Shown: positions 2,858-21,730 of the stretch, piece by piece | Numbering within the stretch: the stretch's first letter is position 1 | Layout: each line of letters begins with the position of its first letter | Assembly: GCA_964373465.1 (NCBI GenBank) | Contig: CAYJVA010000001.1 | Span: 1-28,916 of the forward strand | Direction: 5' to 3' | Source of the DNA: an uncultured Gammaproteobacteria bacterium | Lineage (GTDB): Bacteria > Patescibacteriota > Microgenomatia > UBA1406 > HO2-37-13b | Length of the DNA: 28,916 nucleotides | The notes under the pieces: generated by a model | What the model was told of the DNA's origin: nothing | The model's input: the letters and a program-made list of their open reading frames with translations, nothing else | Databases searched by the model: none | Position numbers and translations under genes: made by a program

Positions 2858-3535
2858 TTAATCTTTTTCTATAGTCAAATGTTTAATGTGTTCCAATTTT
2901 CTTTGATAATCAGAATGATTATATACAAATTCTTGATATTTTTTTGCATTCTCAAAAAATGAAAGAATAAAATCGGTATGACAGAAACCCCTTTGTTTAT
3001 TGATATATTCAAGTAATGAGGATGGTTCATATTTGTGCAAAGTATCAAGATTTTTCACGACATAAGAAGAATAAGGGTTTAAATGAATGTATCTTGAAAC
3101 ATGTAAAAGCTGTTCTTTAGTTTCAATTCTGACACATTTAAATTGACCTAAAAAGAGATGACCTTTCCTGTTGGTGAAGGTATTAAAATAACGCGTAAAG
3201 CTATTTTGAAATTGACTTAAAAATTTACTTATTCCATGTTCTTCTTTTTGTTTAAGCATCAAGTGAAAATGATTAGGCATTAAACAATAACAAATAATTT
3301 CAACCAAAGTTGTGTGTTGCTTCTCTATTTTTTCAATAAATTGATCTTGTTTTTCTTTTGACCAGTGCAGAAAATACGAAAGACGAGTAGGAATATTTTT
3401 AAATCTATAAAAATACAGAGTATCATAAGCACGTTTTATTGGTTTTTTATGGACAAAAATTGGTTTTCTATCAATGCTTTTGTTGAAGATATGATAGATT
3501 TGATCAGTTATAAGCGGCACCCTTCGCGAAGGCAT
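2858..3535 (-). mobile_element. REP-associated tyrosine transposase (RAYT; IS200/IS605-like Y1 HUH superfamily)
   Basis: YHIFNK near the N-terminus, HUH motif YCLMPNHFHL, GHLFLGQF, YIHLNP. Likely start is ATG 3535 (MPSRRVP). Flanked by inverted REP doublets. Confidence 0.9.
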
Positions 3536-3557
3536 ATGTATCAGGATATTACAAAAG

Positions 3558-3592
3558 TACCGAGGTGTCAAATATATTGCACCTCCAAGGTG
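3558..3592 (-). repeat. REP doublet, right end of the RAYT cassette (inverted relative to the left end)
   Basis: TACCGAGGTGT (3558-3568) is the exact reverse complement of 2808-2818; then an 11-nt spacer and CACCT-CCA-AGGTG (3580-3592). Confidence 0.85.
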
Positions 3593-6493: not shown

Positions 6494-7774
6494 ATGTTAT
6501 CCATAGATTTTATACGGAAAAATAAGGAAAAAGTCATTCAAAATGCGATGAATAAAAATCGTTCTGTTAATATTGATATACTTCTCACACTTGATGATAC
6601 TCGAAAAAAACTCATGAAGTCTATTCAGAGACTTCAGGAGGAAAGAAATATATTGTCTCGACAGAAGGTAGATGATGATATAAAAGTAACCCCGCAGAGC
6701 GGGGTAAAAGTAAAAGGGAGGGAAATAAAACAAAAACTGAAAGAATTAGAAAAAGAGCGAAGCGACATTGAAGTATTGTATCAAAAAGAGCTTTCATTAA
6801 TTCCAAACGTAGCGCTTGATGAAGTTCCTATCGGAAAAGATTCTTCAGGGAATATTGAGATAAGAAAAAGCGGTGATATTCCGAAGTTTTCATTCGTGCC
6901 TCTTTCGCATTTTGACTTAGGAAAAAAGTTAGATATTATTGATCTTGATAGGGGAGTGAAAGTGTCTGGTTTTAGGGGTTATTTTTTGAAAAATCAAGGA
7001 GCTCTACTTCAGATGGCTCTTTTGTGGTATGTGTTTCAAAAGTTAGCATCAAAAGGACATACACCTCTTATCGCTCCATCAATCGTGAAGGGATTTTCAC
7101 TTTTTGGCTCAGGACAGTTTCCATGGGGTGAGGGTGAAGTGTACAAGCTTAATGATGAAGATGCGTATCTTGCAGGGACTGCAGAAGTACCAGTGACTGC
7201 TTATCATGCAGGCGAGATTTTAGATGAAAAAACTTTACCAAGAAAATATATTGCATTTTCTCCCTGCTTTAGGCGAGAGGCTGGTTCGTATGGAAAAGAT
7301 ACGCGAGGTTTGTATCGTCTCCATGAGTTTTGGAAGATTGAGCAAGTGATCATCGCAAAAGATGATATTAATGAGGCAAAAAAACTCCATGAAGAATTGC
7401 AGACTAATACAGAAGAGATTCTCAAAGAGTTGGGATTACCCTATCGTGTACTGCTTATGTGCACCGGAGATATGGGCGAGCCTCAGATAAAAAAATATGA
7501 TACTGAGGTATGGATGCCTTATCGCAAAGGCTGGGGAGAAGTTGCGTCCAATTCTCTCATGGGGGATTTTCAGGCGCGTCGTCTGAATATCAAATATAGG
7601 AAAAAGGATGGGTCAACCGCGTATTGTTATACATTGAACAACACTGCCATTCCCTCACCTCGCGTACTTGTGGCTATTTTGGAAAATTATCAAAAGGAGG
7701 ATGGAAGTGTAGTTATTCCACAGGTTTTACGATCTTTGGTTGGATTTGAACATATACTAAGTAAAAACATTTAA
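6494..7774 (+). CDS. serS: Serine--tRNA ligase carrying an 8-codon palindrome insertion in the N-terminal coiled coil
   Basis: LAGTAEVP, CFRREAGSYGKDTRGLYRLHEF, TLNNTAIPSPR. Confidence 0.97.
   Translation: MLSIDFIRKNKEKVIQNAMNKNRSVNIDILLTLDDTRKKLMKSIQRLQEERNILSRQKVDDDIKVTPQSGVKVKGREIKQKLKELEKERSDIEVLYQKELSLIPNVALDEVPIGKDSSGNIEIRKSGDIPKFSFVPLSHFDLGKKLDIIDLDRGVKVSGFRGYFLKNQGALLQMALLWYVFQKLASKGHTPLIAPSIVKGFSLFGSGQFPWGEGEVYKLNDEDAYLAGTAEVPVTAYHAGEILDEKTLPRKYIAFSPCFRREAGSYGKDTRGLYRLHEFWKIEQVIIAKDDINEAKKLHEELQTNTEEILKELGLPYRVLLMCTGDMGEPQIKKYDTEVWMPYRKGWGEVASNSLMGDFQARRLNIKYRKKDGSTAYCYTLNNTAIPSPRVLVAILENYQKEDGSVVIPQVLRSLVGFEHILSKNI
6681..6712. repeat. In-frame palindromic micro-insertion with flanking direct repeat
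   Basis: TAAAAGTA (6681-6688), ACCCCGC-AGA-GCGGGGT (6689-6705), TAAAAGTA (6705-6712). The 24-nt period equals 8 codons. Confidence 0.85.
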
Positions 7775-8981: not shown

Positions 8982-11759
8982 ATGTTTTCTTTTTTTAAAA
9001 AATTATTTGACTACAATCAAAAAGAGATTGAGAGATTGCGTAAAATCGTAATGGAGATCAACACCCACGAAGATCGAGCACGTGTCCTTAAAGAGGAAGA
9101 TTTTAAAAAAGAGACAGATATTTTGAAAAAGCACATACAAAATGGTGAAAAAACTTTAGATGAAGTATTGCCATGGGCATACGCGTTGGTTCGTGAAGGA
9201 GCGCGTCGGGTGCTGGGTGAACGGCATTTTGACGAACAGCTTATGGCTGGTGTCGCGCTTCATGAAGGAAAAGTAGCAGAACAAAAAACAGGCGAGGGAA
9301 AAACTCTCTCATCTACCGCGCCTTTGTATCTGAATGCCTTAACAGGAAAAGGAGTGCATCTCGTGACTGTGAATGATTACCTCGCGCGACGCGATGCTGG
9401 ATGGATGGGACAAGTATTTTATATGCTTGGACTTTCAGTATCCGCGATCATATCTGATCATTCATTTTTGTATGATCCGGATTTCACTGATGATACTGCA
9501 ACTGATTGGAGATTGAGAAATCTTCGTGAGATCTCGCGAAAAGAAGCGTATGACTCAGATATTACCTACGGCATCAACTCTGAATTCGGGTTTGATTATC
9601 TGCGCGATAATATGGCAACTTCACCACGCGATTTAAAACAGCGCGGTTTTTATTATGCGATCATTGACGAGGTTGATTCGGTATTGATAGACGAAGCGCG
9701 CACTCCCCACATCATATCAGCTCCGTATGATGAAGATACTTCAAAGTATTATCAATATGCTCAGATAGTGAGTCAATTGGAGATATCCTCAGATTATGTG
9801 ATTGACGAGAAGTTACATACTGCACATCTGACTGAAAGGGGTATTCTCAAAATTGAACAATTGACTGGGGTTTCAAATATCTATGAAAAAGATTTTGATT
9901 CATTATTTCATATAGAAGCGGCGCTTAAAGCACAGACACTTTTTAAAAAGGACAAAGAATATATTGTGGCTCATAATGAAGTCGTGATCGTCGATGAGTT
10001 TACTGGGCGACTTCTGCATGGTAGGCGTTTTTCTGAAGGATTACATCAGGCAATTGAGGCAAAAGAGAATGTGACGATCAAACGTGAGTCAAAAACATTG
10101 GCAACCGTTTCTCTTCAGAACTATTTCAGAATGTATGACAAACTTGCCGGTATGACAGGTACAGCGGAGACTGAAGCAGAAGAATTTCACAAGATTTATA
10201 AACTTGAAGTAATTACGATACCTACTCATCGTCCTTTAGTGCGGAAGGATCATTCAGATATCATATATAAGACGGACAAAGGAAAATTTAACGCGCTTGT
10301 TGAAGAGATAGCTCGTCAGCATAAAACTGGCCGTCCAATACTCGTAGGGACGACTGCTATTGATAAGAATGAACTTCTCTCAACATTGTTGAAACGGAAA
10401 GGGATACCTCATGAGATGTTGAATGCAAAAAATCATGAAAGGGAAGCATATATCATCAGTAATGCAGGGCGAAAAAATGCAGTAACTGTCGCGACAAATA
10501 TGGCCGGTCGTGGCGTGGATATTATATTAGGAGGACAACCTCCAAGTAAGTTTAAAGTCCAAAGTCAAAAGTCAAAAGTCCAAGAAAATGAATATGAAAA
10601 AGAGATGAAGAAGTGGAGGGAGGATCATGATGAGGTTGTGTCGCTTGGAGGATTATACGTGATGGGAACAGAAAGACATGAATCACGGCGTATTGACAAT
10701 CAACTTCGCGGTCGGTCTGGTCGTCAGGGAGATCCCGGGGAGACTCGATTTTTTGTCTCTCTTCAAGATGAAATGATGCGTATTTTCGGAGGTGAACACG
10801 TGTCAAAACTCATGACTTTTTTCAAAATCCCTGAAGATCAACCTCTTGAACATGCGATCGTATCAAAAGCTCTTGAACAAGCACAAGTGAAGGTCGAAGG
10901 GTTTAATTTTGATATACGAAAACATCTTGTTGATTTTGATGATGTGTTGAACAAGCAACGTGAGATACTCTATAAACAGCGAAAAAGTATTTTATCTGCA
11001 GGAACGCGTGATTCATATGAGATTTTTACTCAAAAGATATACGATATTTTTAAGGAAGAAGTTATGCACATCATCACAAATCATACCGTGGGACTTGACG
11101 AACCTCGGGTGGATGAGATGATAGATGAATATCTGACTATTGTGCCTGTGGAAAAAGAAAGCTTTCGCGACAAAATTAAAGACGTTGACACAGAGAAAAT
11201 ATCTGAATTATTAGAGAATGAATTTGAAAATACCTATCGTGCAAAAGAACAGTCCATAGGAAAGGACATATGGCTTGAGATAGTCAAAAATATATATTTG
11301 AGTACTATTGATACTTATTGGACAGAGCATTTGACTGTGATTGAAGATCTGCGCGAGGGTATTAATTTGCGTGGGTATGGACAACTTGATCCTTTGGTAG
11401 AGTATAAAAATGAAGCGTATACCATGTTTGAAAAACTCCTGTCAAATATTAAGTATGATTTTTCAAGAAGGATTTTGAGAATAGAAGTAGCTCAAGATAC
11501 TTCACCTTTGCAAAAGAAATCCCAATCTGTTCACTTGCATTATCAGTCAGCTTCAGCCGTGAATCCGTTTCGTCTTGGCAAGGGAAAGACCCAACAGCAA
11601 GAAAAATCAATTCCTCACGTTTCTCCTCAACAACCATCATCATCGTATGAATTTAAAATTACTCCACCTGGCACACAAAAGAAAAAAATCATGCGCAATG
11701 ATCCGTGTTGGTGTGGTTCAGGTAAAAAATACAAGAAGTGTCATTTGAATAAAGAATGA
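8982..11759 (+). CDS. secA: Preprotein translocase subunit SecA
   Basis: KTGEGKT, VTVNDYLARRD, DEVDS, ATNMAGRG, QLRGRSGRQGDPG, C-terminal SEC-C zinc motif CWCGSGKKYKKCH. Confidence 0.98.
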   Translation: MFSFFKKLFDYNQKEIERLRKIVMEINTHEDRARVLKEEDFKKETDILKKHIQNGEKTLDEVLPWAYALVREGARRVLGERHFDEQLMAGVALHEGKVAEQKTGEGKTLSSTAPLYLNALTGKGVHLVTVNDYLARRDAGWMGQVFYMLGLSVSAIISDHSFLYDPDFTDDTATDWRLRNLREISRKEAYDSDITYGINSEFGFDYLRDNMATSPRDLKQRGFYYAIIDEVDSVLIDEARTPHIISAPYDEDTSKYYQYAQIVSQLEISSDYVIDEKLHTAHLTERGILKIEQLTGVSNIYEKDFDSLFHIEAALKAQTLFKKDKEYIVAHNEVVIVDEFTGRLLHGRRFSEGLHQAIEAKENVTIKRESKTLATVSLQNYFRMYDKLAGMTGTAETEAEEFHKIYKLEVITIPTHRPLVRKDHSDIIYKTDKGKFNALVEEIARQHKTGRPILVGTTAIDKNELLSTLLKRKGIPHEMLNAKNHEREAYIISNAGRKNAVTVATNMAGRGVDIILGGQPPSKFKVQSQKSKVQENEYEKEMKKWREDHDEVVSLGGLYVMGTERHESRRIDNQLRGRSGRQGDPGETRFFVSLQDEMMRIFGGEHVSKLMTFFKIPEDQPLEHAIVSKALEQAQVKVEGFNFDIRKHLVDFDDVLNKQREILYKQRKSILSAGTRDSYEIFTQKIYDIFKEEVMHIITNHTVGLDEPRVDEMIDEYLTIVPVEKESFRDKIKDVDTEKISELLENEFENTYRAKEQSIGKDIWLEIVKNIYLSTIDTYWTEHLTVIEDLREGINLRGYGQLDPLVEYKNEAYTMFEKLLSNIKYDFSRRILRIEVAQDTSPLQKKSQSVHLHYQSASAVNPFRLGKGKTQQQEKSIPHVSPQQPSSSYEFKITPPGTQKKKIMRNDPCWCGSGKKYKKCHLNKE
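10553..10580 (+). repeat. 7-mer tandem array (4 units) inside secA, encoding KVQSQKSKV
   Basis: TAAAGTC CAAAGTC AAAAGTC AAAAGTC. Confidence 0.85.
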
Positions 11760-19071: not shown

Positions 19072-20129
19072 TTCTTGCGATTGATACCTCATGCGATGAG
19101 ACCTCAGTGGCTCTCACTGAGGGAAGAAAGATTATTGCCAATTCAATCTTCTCACAAGTTTTAATTCATTCGCCATGGGGTGGAGTAGTACCTCATCTGG
19201 CAAAACGCGCTCATGAAGAGAGGATTGATTGGGTGATTGAAAACGCGCTCAAGAAGTCTAAAGTCTCCCGCATGACGGGATCCCGCTCTGCGGGAAAAAG
19301 TCTAAAGTCTAAAGTCATAGAGTATATAGCAGTGACGTATGGGCCTGGGCTTGCGCCAGCGCTTGAAGTAGGAGTAAACAAGGCTAGGGAATTAGCAGAG
19401 AAATATGATAAAAGAATTATTCCTGTCAATCATATGGAAGGACATATTTATTCTTGTTTTGCGCAAAATAGTAAGGGTAACCCGCACAGGGATTTTGATT
19501 TTCCTTATATCGCACTTCTCATATCTGGTGGACACACACAGTTGGTTTTATTTACTTCACATCTTACCTATCAAATAATTGGGGAGACTGTTGATGACGC
19601 GGCAGGTGAGTCTCTTGACAAAGCGGCAAAAATGTTGGGACTGGGATATCCGGGAGGTGCGGTGATTGAACGGTTGGCTCAAAGGGGGGATCCGCGCTAC
19701 CATCAGTTTCCGCGACCACTCTCTCTATCAAAAGATTTTAATTTTTCATTTTCTGGTTTGAAGACTTCATTGTTTTATTATCTTAAAACAATAAGCGAAG
19801 ATGAAAAAAACACTCATCTTGCAGATCTTGCCAGCTCGTTTCAAGAAGCAGTATGTGATAGTCTTTTGGTCAAACTTAAAAATGCAATCCAACGCACTGG
19901 TGTTAATCGTATTTTGGTTGGAGGCGGTGTGGGCGCAAATATATATCTCAGGAAAAAAATAAGAAGTGTGGTTAAAAATATGCGAGGGCATGTATTTTTT
20001 CCACCATTTCCATATCTTTATGGTGATAATGCAGGGATGATTGGAATTGCAGGTTATTTTAAGGCGCAGCGGGGGGTTTTTGTTGAAGATAGAGAAAGTT
20101 TTGATCGAGTTCCTCGATTATCTTTTTGA
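19065..20129 (+). CDS. tsaD: tRNA N6-adenosine threonylcarbamoyltransferase TsaD, with an in-frame repeat insertion
   Basis: ILAIDTSCDET, GGVVP, YGPGL, HMEGH, SGGHT, DDAAGE, FSFSGLKT, DNAGMIG. Confidence 0.97.
   Translation: MLILAIDTSCDETSVALTEGRKIIANSIFSQVLIHSPWGGVVPHLAKRAHEERIDWVIENALKKSKVSRMTGSRSAGKSLKSKVIEYIAVTYGPGLAPALEVGVNKARELAEKYDKRIIPVNHMEGHIYSCFAQNSKGNPHRDFDFPYIALLISGGHTQLVLFTSHLTYQIIGETVDDAAGESLDKAAKMLGLGYPGGAVIERLAQRGDPRYHQFPRPLSLSKDFNFSFSGLKTSLFYYLKTISEDEKNTHLADLASSFQEAVCDSLLVKLKNAIQRTGVNRILVGGGVGANIYLRKKIRSVVKNMRGHVFFPPFPYLYGDNAGMIGIAGYFKAQRGVFVEDRESFDRVPRLSF
19254..19317 (+). repeat. Two tandem 15-nt palindromes embedded in an AAAGTCT 7-mer array inside tsaD
   Basis: AAGTCT AAAGTC, then TCCCG-CATGA-CGGGA and TCCCGC-TCT-GCGGGA (19266-19295, 10 codons, SRMTGSRSAG), then A AAAGTCT AAAGTCT AAAGTCA. 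Confidence 0.9.
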
Positions 20130-20140
20130 AGCTTACTTTG

Positions 20141-20235
20141 TATACCGCTTTCAGATGAAATTGCAAGAATATGTTTCATTTTACAGCGGTATAACCCTTC
20201 GTACGTCCCGCCATGGCGGGACTACGATGGGTATA
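20141..20235 (+). mobile_element. TATA-bounded two-hairpin miniature element, copy A (95 nt)
   Basis: TATACCGCT...AGCGGTATA hairpin followed by TATAACCC-TTCGTAC-GTCCCGCCATGGCGGGAC-TACGATGGGTATA; homologous to copies B and C. Confidence 0.8.
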
Positions 20236-21121: not shown

Positions 21122-21315
21122 TTATTTATTCTCTTTCTCAAAAATAAATAATGTACAAATAAAACCATTATCGTTTAAATTTTCTTTACGGATGAGCGCA
21201 AAATGATTGTTTTTGAATAAGTCAAGATAATATGCTTTTTCTCTATTATAATCTACCACTTTTCCAATTTGAGGTATATCGCTGTAATGTAATATTTCTT
21301 TGAACTTTTTGTCGT
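21122..21315 (-). pseudogene. 3' remnant (about 64 codons) of an unidentified gene, fused in frame behind miniature element B
   Basis: Open frame NDKKFKEILH...FEKENK* whose stop lies 3 nt before the dsbA-like ATG; begins exactly at the element end. Confidence 0.45.
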
Positions 21316-21440
21316 TATACCCATCGTAGTCCCGCCATGGCGGGACGTACGGAGGGTTATGCCGCTGATCATCGCATACGAGATCCCGCTTTGCGGGAAA
21401 GATGAGACGATTTGTTGCAATCTCATCTGAAAGCGGTATA
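21316..21440 (-). mobile_element. TATA-bounded two-hairpin miniature element, copy B (125 nt), inverted relative to A and C
   Basis: Reverse complement aligns to copy A end to end, plus a 30-nt extra (21369-21398) containing TCCCGC-TTT-GCGGGA. Confidence 0.8.
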
Positions 21441-21730
21441 TCCAGTCGGTGAGTCTTTACATCAACTATATAATAAAATCCATCTTTATCGGTAAAAGCT
21501 AAATCAGCCATTGCTCGTCGAGCAAAAGTAGAGGAATATTCACTGGCAAGATTACCGAGTATTGTTTTGAAATTTTCGACTATTATATTTTCAATAGCAT
21601 CGCCAACAGCGCGAGGACTTTCAATTGTTCTATCAGATAAGAAATCTTCTTGTTTATTGAGAAGTGACTGAATTTTTCTTTCAATCATTTCTCTGTTTGT
21701 ATTTCCGTAGAAAATTGAACTCTTTTTCAT
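21440..21730 (-). pseudogene. N-terminal 97 codons of a putative type II PD-(D/E)xK restriction endonuclease, cut off by element B
   Basis: SPRAVGDAIE...RRAMADLAF...IVDVKTHRLD (D...DxK-like core); 4-bp overlap with the upstream methyltransferase; sequence switches to element B at codon 98. Confidence 0.7.

Follow-up and report, generated by a model that had tools for sequence, protein, structure and literature searches.

We analyzed a 28,916-nt stretch of DNA (contig CAYJVA010000001.1 of assembly GCA_964373465.1, hereafter the window) from a Patescibacteria lineage of the Microgenomates/Roizmanbacteria kind, and within it a short GC-rich palindrome lying inside serS, the gene encoding seryl-tRNA synthetase (SerRS). 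The genome to which the window belongs, referred to as G000, comprises 0.90 Mb in 120 contigs with 35.8% GC. The serS open reading frame (ORF) is intact and remains in frame across the palindrome. It encodes a full-length, uninterrupted SerRS of the bacterial type, with an N-terminal coiled-coil arm and a class II catalytic core (homologues of PF02403 and PF00587), and matches to PDB 2dq3 (E 6.5e-93) and 1ser cover residues 1-419. The features of the locus are as follows.

6494..7774 (+): serS, ORF for a 426-aa seryl-tRNA synthetase
6681..6689 (+): 9-nt direct repeat TAAAAGTAA, left copy, whose last base adjoins the palindrome
6690..6704 (no strand assigned): perfect 15-nt palindrome CCCCGC-AGA-GCGGGG, or 17 nt if the A/T pair 6689/6705 is counted
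6705..6713 (+): right copy of TAAAAGTAA, beginning exactly after the palindrome
6689..6712 (+): eight extra codons, T66-V73 (V65-K72 is an equivalent placement), absent from the SerRS sequence P0002 and from all relatives outside the genus

Anatomy of the serS insert

The site reads ATAAAAGTAA-CCCCGC-AGA-GCGGGG-TAAAAGTAAAAGG on the coding strand. A preliminary description of the window had proposed a 24-nt insertion at this position with an 8-bp target duplication, and all of its parts were recovered: TAAAAGTA at 6681-6688, ACCCCGC-AGA-GCGGGGT at 6689-6705, and a second TAAAAGTA at 6705-6712. Deletion of 24 nt yields ...DDDIKVKGREIK, as had been claimed. Two details needed adjustment, since the direct repeat is 9 nt rather than 8 and the end coordinate is off by at most one base, the second TAAAAGTA copy sharing its T with the palindrome. 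The period of the direct repeat is 24 and in frame, and the 24-nt segment can be read either as 15 + 9 or as 17 + 7.

Such an arrangement is rare by chance. Sequences of the form CCCCGC-N3-GCGGGG with up to two mismatches were found three times in the window against 0.05 expected, and the combination of a hairpin stem of at least 6 bp with an adjacent direct repeat of at least 7 nt occurred once, at the serS site, whereas dinucleotide shuffling produced it in 10 of 300 shuffles (0.033 per shuffle). The predicted RNA hairpin at 6690..6704 has a folding energy of -13.0 kcal/mol (z -4.6). An Rfam scan of the window returned two tRNAs only, and no RNA family at the serS hairpin.

Two trivial origins were ruled out. 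The insert is not an assembly artifact, because it is in frame and is found in two independent assemblies, and it did not arise de novo as a local palindrome by template switching, because its 13-nt core is shared with distant loci.

Distribution among relatives and position in the synthetase

SerRS sequences were aligned for 29 genomes of the same order and for 120 database homologues, and the whole genome of a congener (G001, a single genome of the same genus, SerRS 84% identical) was compared with G000 at orthologous sites. In the 29-genome alignment, the eight extra residues were present only in G000 and G001. The proposed 24-nt (eight-codon) insertion is accordingly well supported, being missing from 28 relatives in the order and from almost all of the 120 database homologues. 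P0002, an equally close third lineage whose 418-aa SerRS is 86% identical, reads ...NDD-LKS-KGR..., exactly eight residues fewer, and represents the empty site at the protein level. Relatives have a single I-K-x-K-G at this site, with no array. Scans for SerRS in metagenomes and genomes found nothing closer than G001. The three close SerRS lineages (the window's, P0001 and P0002) form a trichotomy, in which a pairing of the window with P0001 was not rejected (p-AU 0.42).

No relative showed an equally long but unrelated segment, which would have spoken against the preliminary description: the only one of equal length is the congener, and there the segment is the orthologous, older insert with a weakened palindrome and a degraded duplication. 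Its 24 nt read ACC-GAG-TTG-AGC-TCG-ATA-AAA-ATA, the flanking repeat retains 6 of 8 matches, and the hairpin is weaker (-5.0 kcal/mol, z -1.3), with one pair broken. Two stem pairs differ between G000 and G001 on both sides with pairing kept (C-G to G-C and C-G to A-T; P ~0.03 under a crude null), which is suggestive of either constraint or hairpin replacement. The insert peptide is not conserved between the two, being VTPQSGVK in G000 and ATELSSIK in G001.

The preliminary description had placed the insert in or near the turn of the helical arm, and an AlphaFold model (59-sequence alignment, pLDDT 82) supported this tolerated position. Two long antiparallel helices (residues 27-55 and 69-101) form the coiled-coil arm, joined by a low-confidence loop (56-68), and the insert (65-73) runs from the final part of the tip loop into the second arm helix, of which it forms the first turn. 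When insertions were mapped across 121 SerRS sequences of the clade, all internal insertions of at least 4 aa sat after residues 55-62. One of them, PAMAGS in P0003 (known from protein), is the reading of CCCGCC-ATG-GCGGGA. Another is a 32-aa insert after residue 56 of P0124, a sequence that clusters at 90% with the empty P0002; this insert contains SREAGSR and DPAYG, which are readings of TCCCGC-GAA-GCGGGA-TC and CCCGC-GTA-CGGG units seen elsewhere in G000 and G001. A tblastn search of the P0124 insert peptide against both genomes gave short, statistically insignificant matches only, and these fell on hairpin loci. Because the P0003 and P0124 inserts also read as family hairpins, the arm tip has been struck at least three times independently, once recently enough to leave a polymorphism among near-identical sequences. 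At least three arm-tip insertions in one small clade, one of them a strain-level polymorphism, suggest ongoing activity.

A dispersed hairpin family and its mobility

Across G000, hairpins with an all-GC stem of 5 bp number 97, against 3 in shuffled sequence. The stem is CCCGC in 66 of the 97, and CCCGC-stem hairpins lie about 30-fold above chance. These and related hairpins fall into three sets: copies carried in a repeat of ~100 nt; free units of 15-16 nt, often joined as 30-nt doublets and nearly always nested in tandem arrays of AAAAGTY-type heptamers; and a sister 17-nt family, CCCCGAT-N3-ATCGGGG. The serS palindrome belongs to the CCCGC family by its stem and core, which are shared beyond chance, and by presence and absence at orthologous sites. 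Its 13-nt core, CCCGC-AGA-GCGGG, recurs identically at C71:4658, at C104:2243 and, in the other orientation, in tsaD, also in the window:

19266..19295 (no strand assigned): tsaD doublet of two 15-nt hairpins, in frame within an AAAGTCT array; the second unit (19281-19295) is the serS core in opposite orientation; hairpin-less in the congener

The serS copy is solitary and departs from the family in two respects. Its stem closes with C/G rather than with the typical T/A pair (TCCCGC...GCGGGA), and it is not nested in a heptamer array, its flanks holding only ~1.5 heptamer-like units of native coding sequence. The preliminary description had called it the cleanest footprint of the insertion mechanism; serS is indeed the cleanest case, and it is at the same time an atypical member of the CCCGC family.

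Comparison of the two congeneric genomes pointed to mobility of both families. CCCGC hairpins number 66 in G000 and 9 in G001, CCCGAT-N(2-4)-ATCGGG hairpins 16 and 4, and heptamer arrays 91 and 51. Thirteen loci are filled in G000 and hairpin-less in G001, and at least two show the converse. At CCCGC sites the congener usually has a shorter, hairpin-less array (tsaD and sites on C6, C46, C48, C62, C71, C78, C104, and C70). Single 16-nt CCCGC units have 3-nt TTG/CAA flanks and a net gain of 12 nt over the empty ortholog. In the sister family, two genes and 23S rRNA provide filled and empty sites that differ by 21 nt, made up of the 17-nt unit and a TTGA-like repeat of 4 nt. At C86:2002, for example, an empty CTTGAAT corresponds to CTTGA + 17 nt + TTGA + AT; further 21-nt pairs of this family were found at C71:3649 and at C57:5203 (23S rRNA), and at C55:4278 of G001 the arrangement is TTAA + 17 nt + TTAA, also a 21-nt pair. 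Identical 4-nt flanks surround 9 of 16 copies of the 17-nt family, and where copies are embedded in arrays, the 7-nt register is best restored by removing 21 nt. The orientation of this family relative to local GC skew showed no bias, in a sample of few copies on short contigs.

Beyond the genus, TCCCGC-N3-GCGGGA was found in 12 of 41 genomes of the order (1-13 copies each; a reversed-pattern control gave zero in all), and the sister 17-nt family in 8 of 41. In other genera the CCCGC unit forms the apex of longer inverted repeats.

Heptamer arrays, defined as at least three AAAAGTY-type units, number 91 in the 0.9 Mb of G000. Thirty-nine lie inside ORFs of at least 150 codons, with the A-rich strand as the sense strand in 34 of the 39. 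One of the 91 is in the window's secA, where three AAAGTC-type units lie in frame at 10561-10580 (KFKVQSQKSKVQ). In tsaD (19254-19316), five AAAGTCT units surround the doublet and the whole reads KSKV-SRMTGSRSAG-KSLKSKV; at that position the congener has a short A-rich stretch without hairpins. Blocks of three or four GC hairpins recur in heptamer arrays at C62:3681-3740, C78:2640-2700, and C61:4060-4140 of G000. They include CCCGC-AAA-GCGGG, TCGC-AAAC-GA, CCCCG-TAT-GCGGGG, and others, and are absent from the orthologous sites of the congener.

Copies of the ~100-nt repeat lie in the window at 20205-20222, 21329-21346, and 21384-21398, with CCCGCC-ATGG-CGGG and CCCGC-TTT-GCGGG hairpins. About 48 of the genome-wide hairpin matches belong to this repeat, many of them at contig ends, and one copy is read through in the ORF at 21122-21730 (-). 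In the 23S rRNA gene of G000, the 21-nt insertion (C57:5203-5219; a 17-nt CCCCGAT hairpin flanked by TTGA/TGGA) is situated within the 5' portion, and the 23S of the congener does not have it. The congener also has a separate REP-like family (REP, repetitive extragenic palindromic) with a GTAG start (TGTAGGGAACGCAGATCTGCGTTCCCTACA type) at C17:3326, C22:5588, C25:481, C26:6197, C61:8420, and C75:8416, as well as a CCTGTC-GGCA-GACAGG family; neither was seen in the window.

Hairpins of this kind also occur in tRNA-Ser, whose variable arm is bound by the SerRS arm, as established for T. thermophilus SerRS-tRNASer. The tRNA-Ser loci are:

G000, C55:3913-4005 and C98:102-189: tRNA-Ser
G001, C59:9785-9870 and C36:326-412: tRNA-Ser of the congener

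The tRNA-Ser(GGA) of G000 differs from that of the congener in the variable arm and in a single D-loop base, and is otherwise identical. Ordinarily, in relatives as well, the arm is of the AGGGG-AGA-CCCT type; in G000 it is ATCCCGAT-TAA-ATCGGGAT, a copy of the 17-nt family (CCCGAT-TAA-ATCGGG). In this gene a family hairpin has thus taken the place of an existing stem-loop. The arm of tRNA-Ser(UGA) is CCCCG-TTTG-CGGGG in G000 versus GAAC-GAAA-GTTC in the congener, and a further relative, G030, has TCCCGCC-TTT-GGCGGGA as a tRNA-Ser arm. A link between the SerRS insert and these changes is unproven, because the insert predates them. In the congener, a duplicate of the 5'-most 35 nt of tRNA-Ser(GGA) lies ~340 nt upstream of the complete gene (C59:9445-9520). 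A TCCCGC-ACAAG-GCGGGA hairpin and one further hairpin follow the duplicate directly, possibly as a scar left by insertion into this tRNA gene.

Competing explanations and comparison with known systems

We consider it most probable (about 0.68) that the serS segment belongs to a dispersed family of GC-rich palindromes 15-17 nt long, was inserted in frame in one step with duplication of its target, and is carried as a neutral passenger in a loop. In this Patescibacteria lineage the family, with its CCCGC/GCGGG stem, would act as mobile DNA that is very small and non-autonomous. A single in-frame event of 24 nt would have brought one unit into an A-rich target resembling a heptamer (ATAAAAGTAAAAGG), adding the 15-nt palindrome and a 9-nt target duplication made by the insertion mechanism itself, before the split of the G000 species from its congener. 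The copy would then have been kept at the distal tip loop of the coiled-coil arm, where extra residues are tolerated, as TPQSG-type loop residues that are probably neutral. A single step is argued for because 15 + 9 preserves the frame, while a step of 7 nt or of 17 nt taken separately would shift the frame of an essential gene.

Several observations weigh against this interpretation. An exact adjacent repeat of at least 8 nt occurs in the CCCGC family only at serS and at C7:11904 (control rate 0.2%), and in arrays the register is restored by removing the 30-nt doublet alone or 37 nt, so that a duplication of 0 or of 7 nt fits the period-7 test equally well. The serS repeat equals heptamer-array sequence, which makes slippage possible. 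No transposase was linked to the family in G000, and the REPs beside the RAYT-like genes of this genome (RAYT, REP-associated tyrosine transposase) are of other sequence types. The empty serS site is known from protein and not from DNA. Lastly, with the three close SerRS lineages in a trichotomy, two histories are equally possible: the insert was gained in the common ancestor and then precisely lost in P0002, or it was gained once, later, in the ancestor of G000 and G001. Palindromes between direct repeats are known to undergo precise deletion by slipped mispairing, and such a deletion, favored by the flanking repeat and the hairpin, could explain the empty P0002 if the insert is older.

The 17 + 7 reading of the segment leads to an alternative in which the 17-nt hairpin (A-CCCCGC...GCGGGG-T) lies between two AAAAGTA units of a miniature array and the 24 nt survived as the in-frame sum of two changes. 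The abundance of heptamer arrays in G000, including those in long ORFs, agrees with this, as does the nesting of nearly all CCCGC hairpins in them; arrays vary by whole units between the congeners (C7:11905, +7/-7), arrays holding 30-nt doublets come back into register with 0 or 7 additional nt, and the net gain of 12 nt at 16-nt singles equals 19 - 7. Yet either change alone would frameshift the essential, single-copy serS, which makes a pair of independent events unlikely; the repeat, exact over 9 nt rather than 7, abuts the perfect 15-nt palindrome on both sides; and relatives show one I-K-x-K-G copy at the site without an array. We regard heptamer slippage as unlikely. The same considerations bear on the staggered-cut-like duplication of the preliminary description. 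The flanking repeat is exact, and a staggered cut behind it is plausible, but the repeat is not established as the footprint of one, given that the 7 nt of the 17 + 7 reading amount to one AAAAGTN unit, that other family members in heptamer arrays have no comparable exact flanking repeat, and that no transposase is tied to the family.

A different route to the same arrangement would be movement of the hairpins as single-stranded DNA by an HUH/Y1 enzyme, either IS200-like TnpA or RAYT-like, in which case the apparent duplication would be a target word plus the cleavage word of the element, with no staggered cut. Six PF01797 matches (one IS200-like, five RAYT-like) in a 0.9-Mb genome make such enzymes available, and the elements are single hairpins, the substrate type established for Y1 enzymes in IS608 and REP/RAYT (PMC3116915). 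The sister family prefers the word TTGA on both sides, sometimes with one base different (TTGA/TGGA, TCAG/TCGG), which fits a target plus an element-borne word better than a true duplication. However, the hairpins that flank the six PF01797 genes belong to CACC, TTAACC, and other types and in no case to CCCGC or CCCCGAT; the 9-nt word far exceeds the 4-5-nt words of known Y1 systems; and hairpin orientation is unbiased with respect to GC skew. Movement by a Y1 enzyme appears improbable to us, more so than slippage, and any suggestion as to the nature of the mobilizing enzyme is necessarily conjectural. One of the six genes lies in the window at 2858-3571 (-), a RAYT-like ORF of 237 aa (PF01797, 38.5 bits) that has alaS on one side and a tRNA on the other; hairpins of the CACCTCGGAGGTG type lie close by.

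Retention of the insert in both congeners, together with the paired stem changes in serS and the hairpin variable arms of tRNA-Ser(GGA) and tRNA-Ser(UGA) in G000 (ordinary in the congener), could also reflect a function, the hairpin or the eight-residue loop being kept as RNA or DNA structure or for altered recognition of tRNA-Ser. This seems very improbable, as the congener's hairpin is weak and broken in one pair, the peptide is unconserved, and P0002 does without the insert. Moreover, the tRNA arms were replaced in G000 only, while the SerRS insert is present in both species, and at another shared site (C7:11905) the congener's hairpin arm has simply decayed.

If the serS segment is a mobile family copy, as we favor, it sets a new lower size for DNA behaving as mobile, with 15-nt selfish hairpins translated within essential translation genes of ultra-small bacteria. 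Hairpin insertions would account for many small length differences among orthologous proteins of the candidate phyla radiation (CPR), and annotators and structure predictors should be cautious with such loops, which may be passengers at the DNA level. The serS case is useful because a highly conserved gene shows the insert and the duplication as well as the ancestral state. Ongoing activity could be followed in metagenomic time series, and the replacement of the tRNA-Ser variable arm is a natural experiment on whether SerRS recognizes that arm independently of its sequence.

A broader view, which we hold with considerable doubt, is that the 15-17-nt palindromes form a distinct class and the smallest mobile DNA known. 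They would be modular hairpins, copied or swapped into any site that puts up with a generic stem-loop or with a loop in a protein (essential-gene protein loops, MITE apices, tRNA-Ser variable arms, 23S rRNA; MITE, miniature inverted-repeat transposable element), with heptamer arrays (7 = 1 mod 3) as landing pads and frame buffers. In G000 the two members of a recognition pair, the SerRS arm tip and the tRNA-Ser variable arms, would both have been remodeled. Full-text literature searches found nothing on such elements in Patescibacteria.

Among known systems, the small dispersed repeats (SDRs) of Nostoc and Anabaena are alike in being very small, hairpin-forming, and dispersed, and in having their mobility deduced from filled and empty orthologous sites. 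Nostoc SDRs are reportedly 21-27-nt (about 20-nt) hairpin repeats nested in heptanucleotide tandem repeats and MITEs, and are not known to have an enzyme. Nesting in heptamer arrays and in MITE-like repeats was seen for the CCCGC family. SDRs differ in being cyanobacterial and unrelated in sequence, whereas the units described here are 15-17 nt, lie routinely in frame in essential genes, and reach 23S rRNA and the variable arm of tRNA-Ser.

Heptameric repeats are an over-represented class of simple sequence repeats in bacteria (PMC4692102). Rickettsia palindromic elements, in the summary given in PMC10969869 (after Ogata et al. 2000), are selfish palindromes in frame in unrelated housekeeping genes of a reduced genome, tolerated at the protein surface. 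The serS insert shares the in-frame insertion but neither the size nor the conserved peptide: those elements are ~100-150 bp, about ten times larger than the 15 nt (five codons) here, which encode no conserved peptide and are associated with heptamer arrays. GC clusters of yeast and fungal mitochondria are GC palindromes in AT-rich DNA with short flanking repeats (AG, ACT), merging and shuffling units, stem constraint, and an unknown mover (PMC4478555). They are organellar, 30-50 nt, and mostly intergenic, whereas the present units are bacterial, 15-17 nt, flanked by repeats of 4 or 9 nt, and mostly in coding sequence. The classical MITE (50-500 bp, terminal inverted repeats, target-site duplication, autonomous insertion sequence [IS]) does not describe units of 15-17 nt that consist entirely of two 6-nt arms; a flanking duplication is present, and no cognate IS for the serS palindrome was found in G000. 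REP/REPIN-RAYT systems (PMC3116915) resemble the present case in having short, many-copy, GC-rich hairpins and RAYT-like genes in the same genome. REPs are, however, extragenic, carry a conserved 5' tetranucleotide, and flank the RAYT gene, whereas CCCGC hairpins, including the serS and tsaD copies, are intragenic and flank none of the six Y1 genes.

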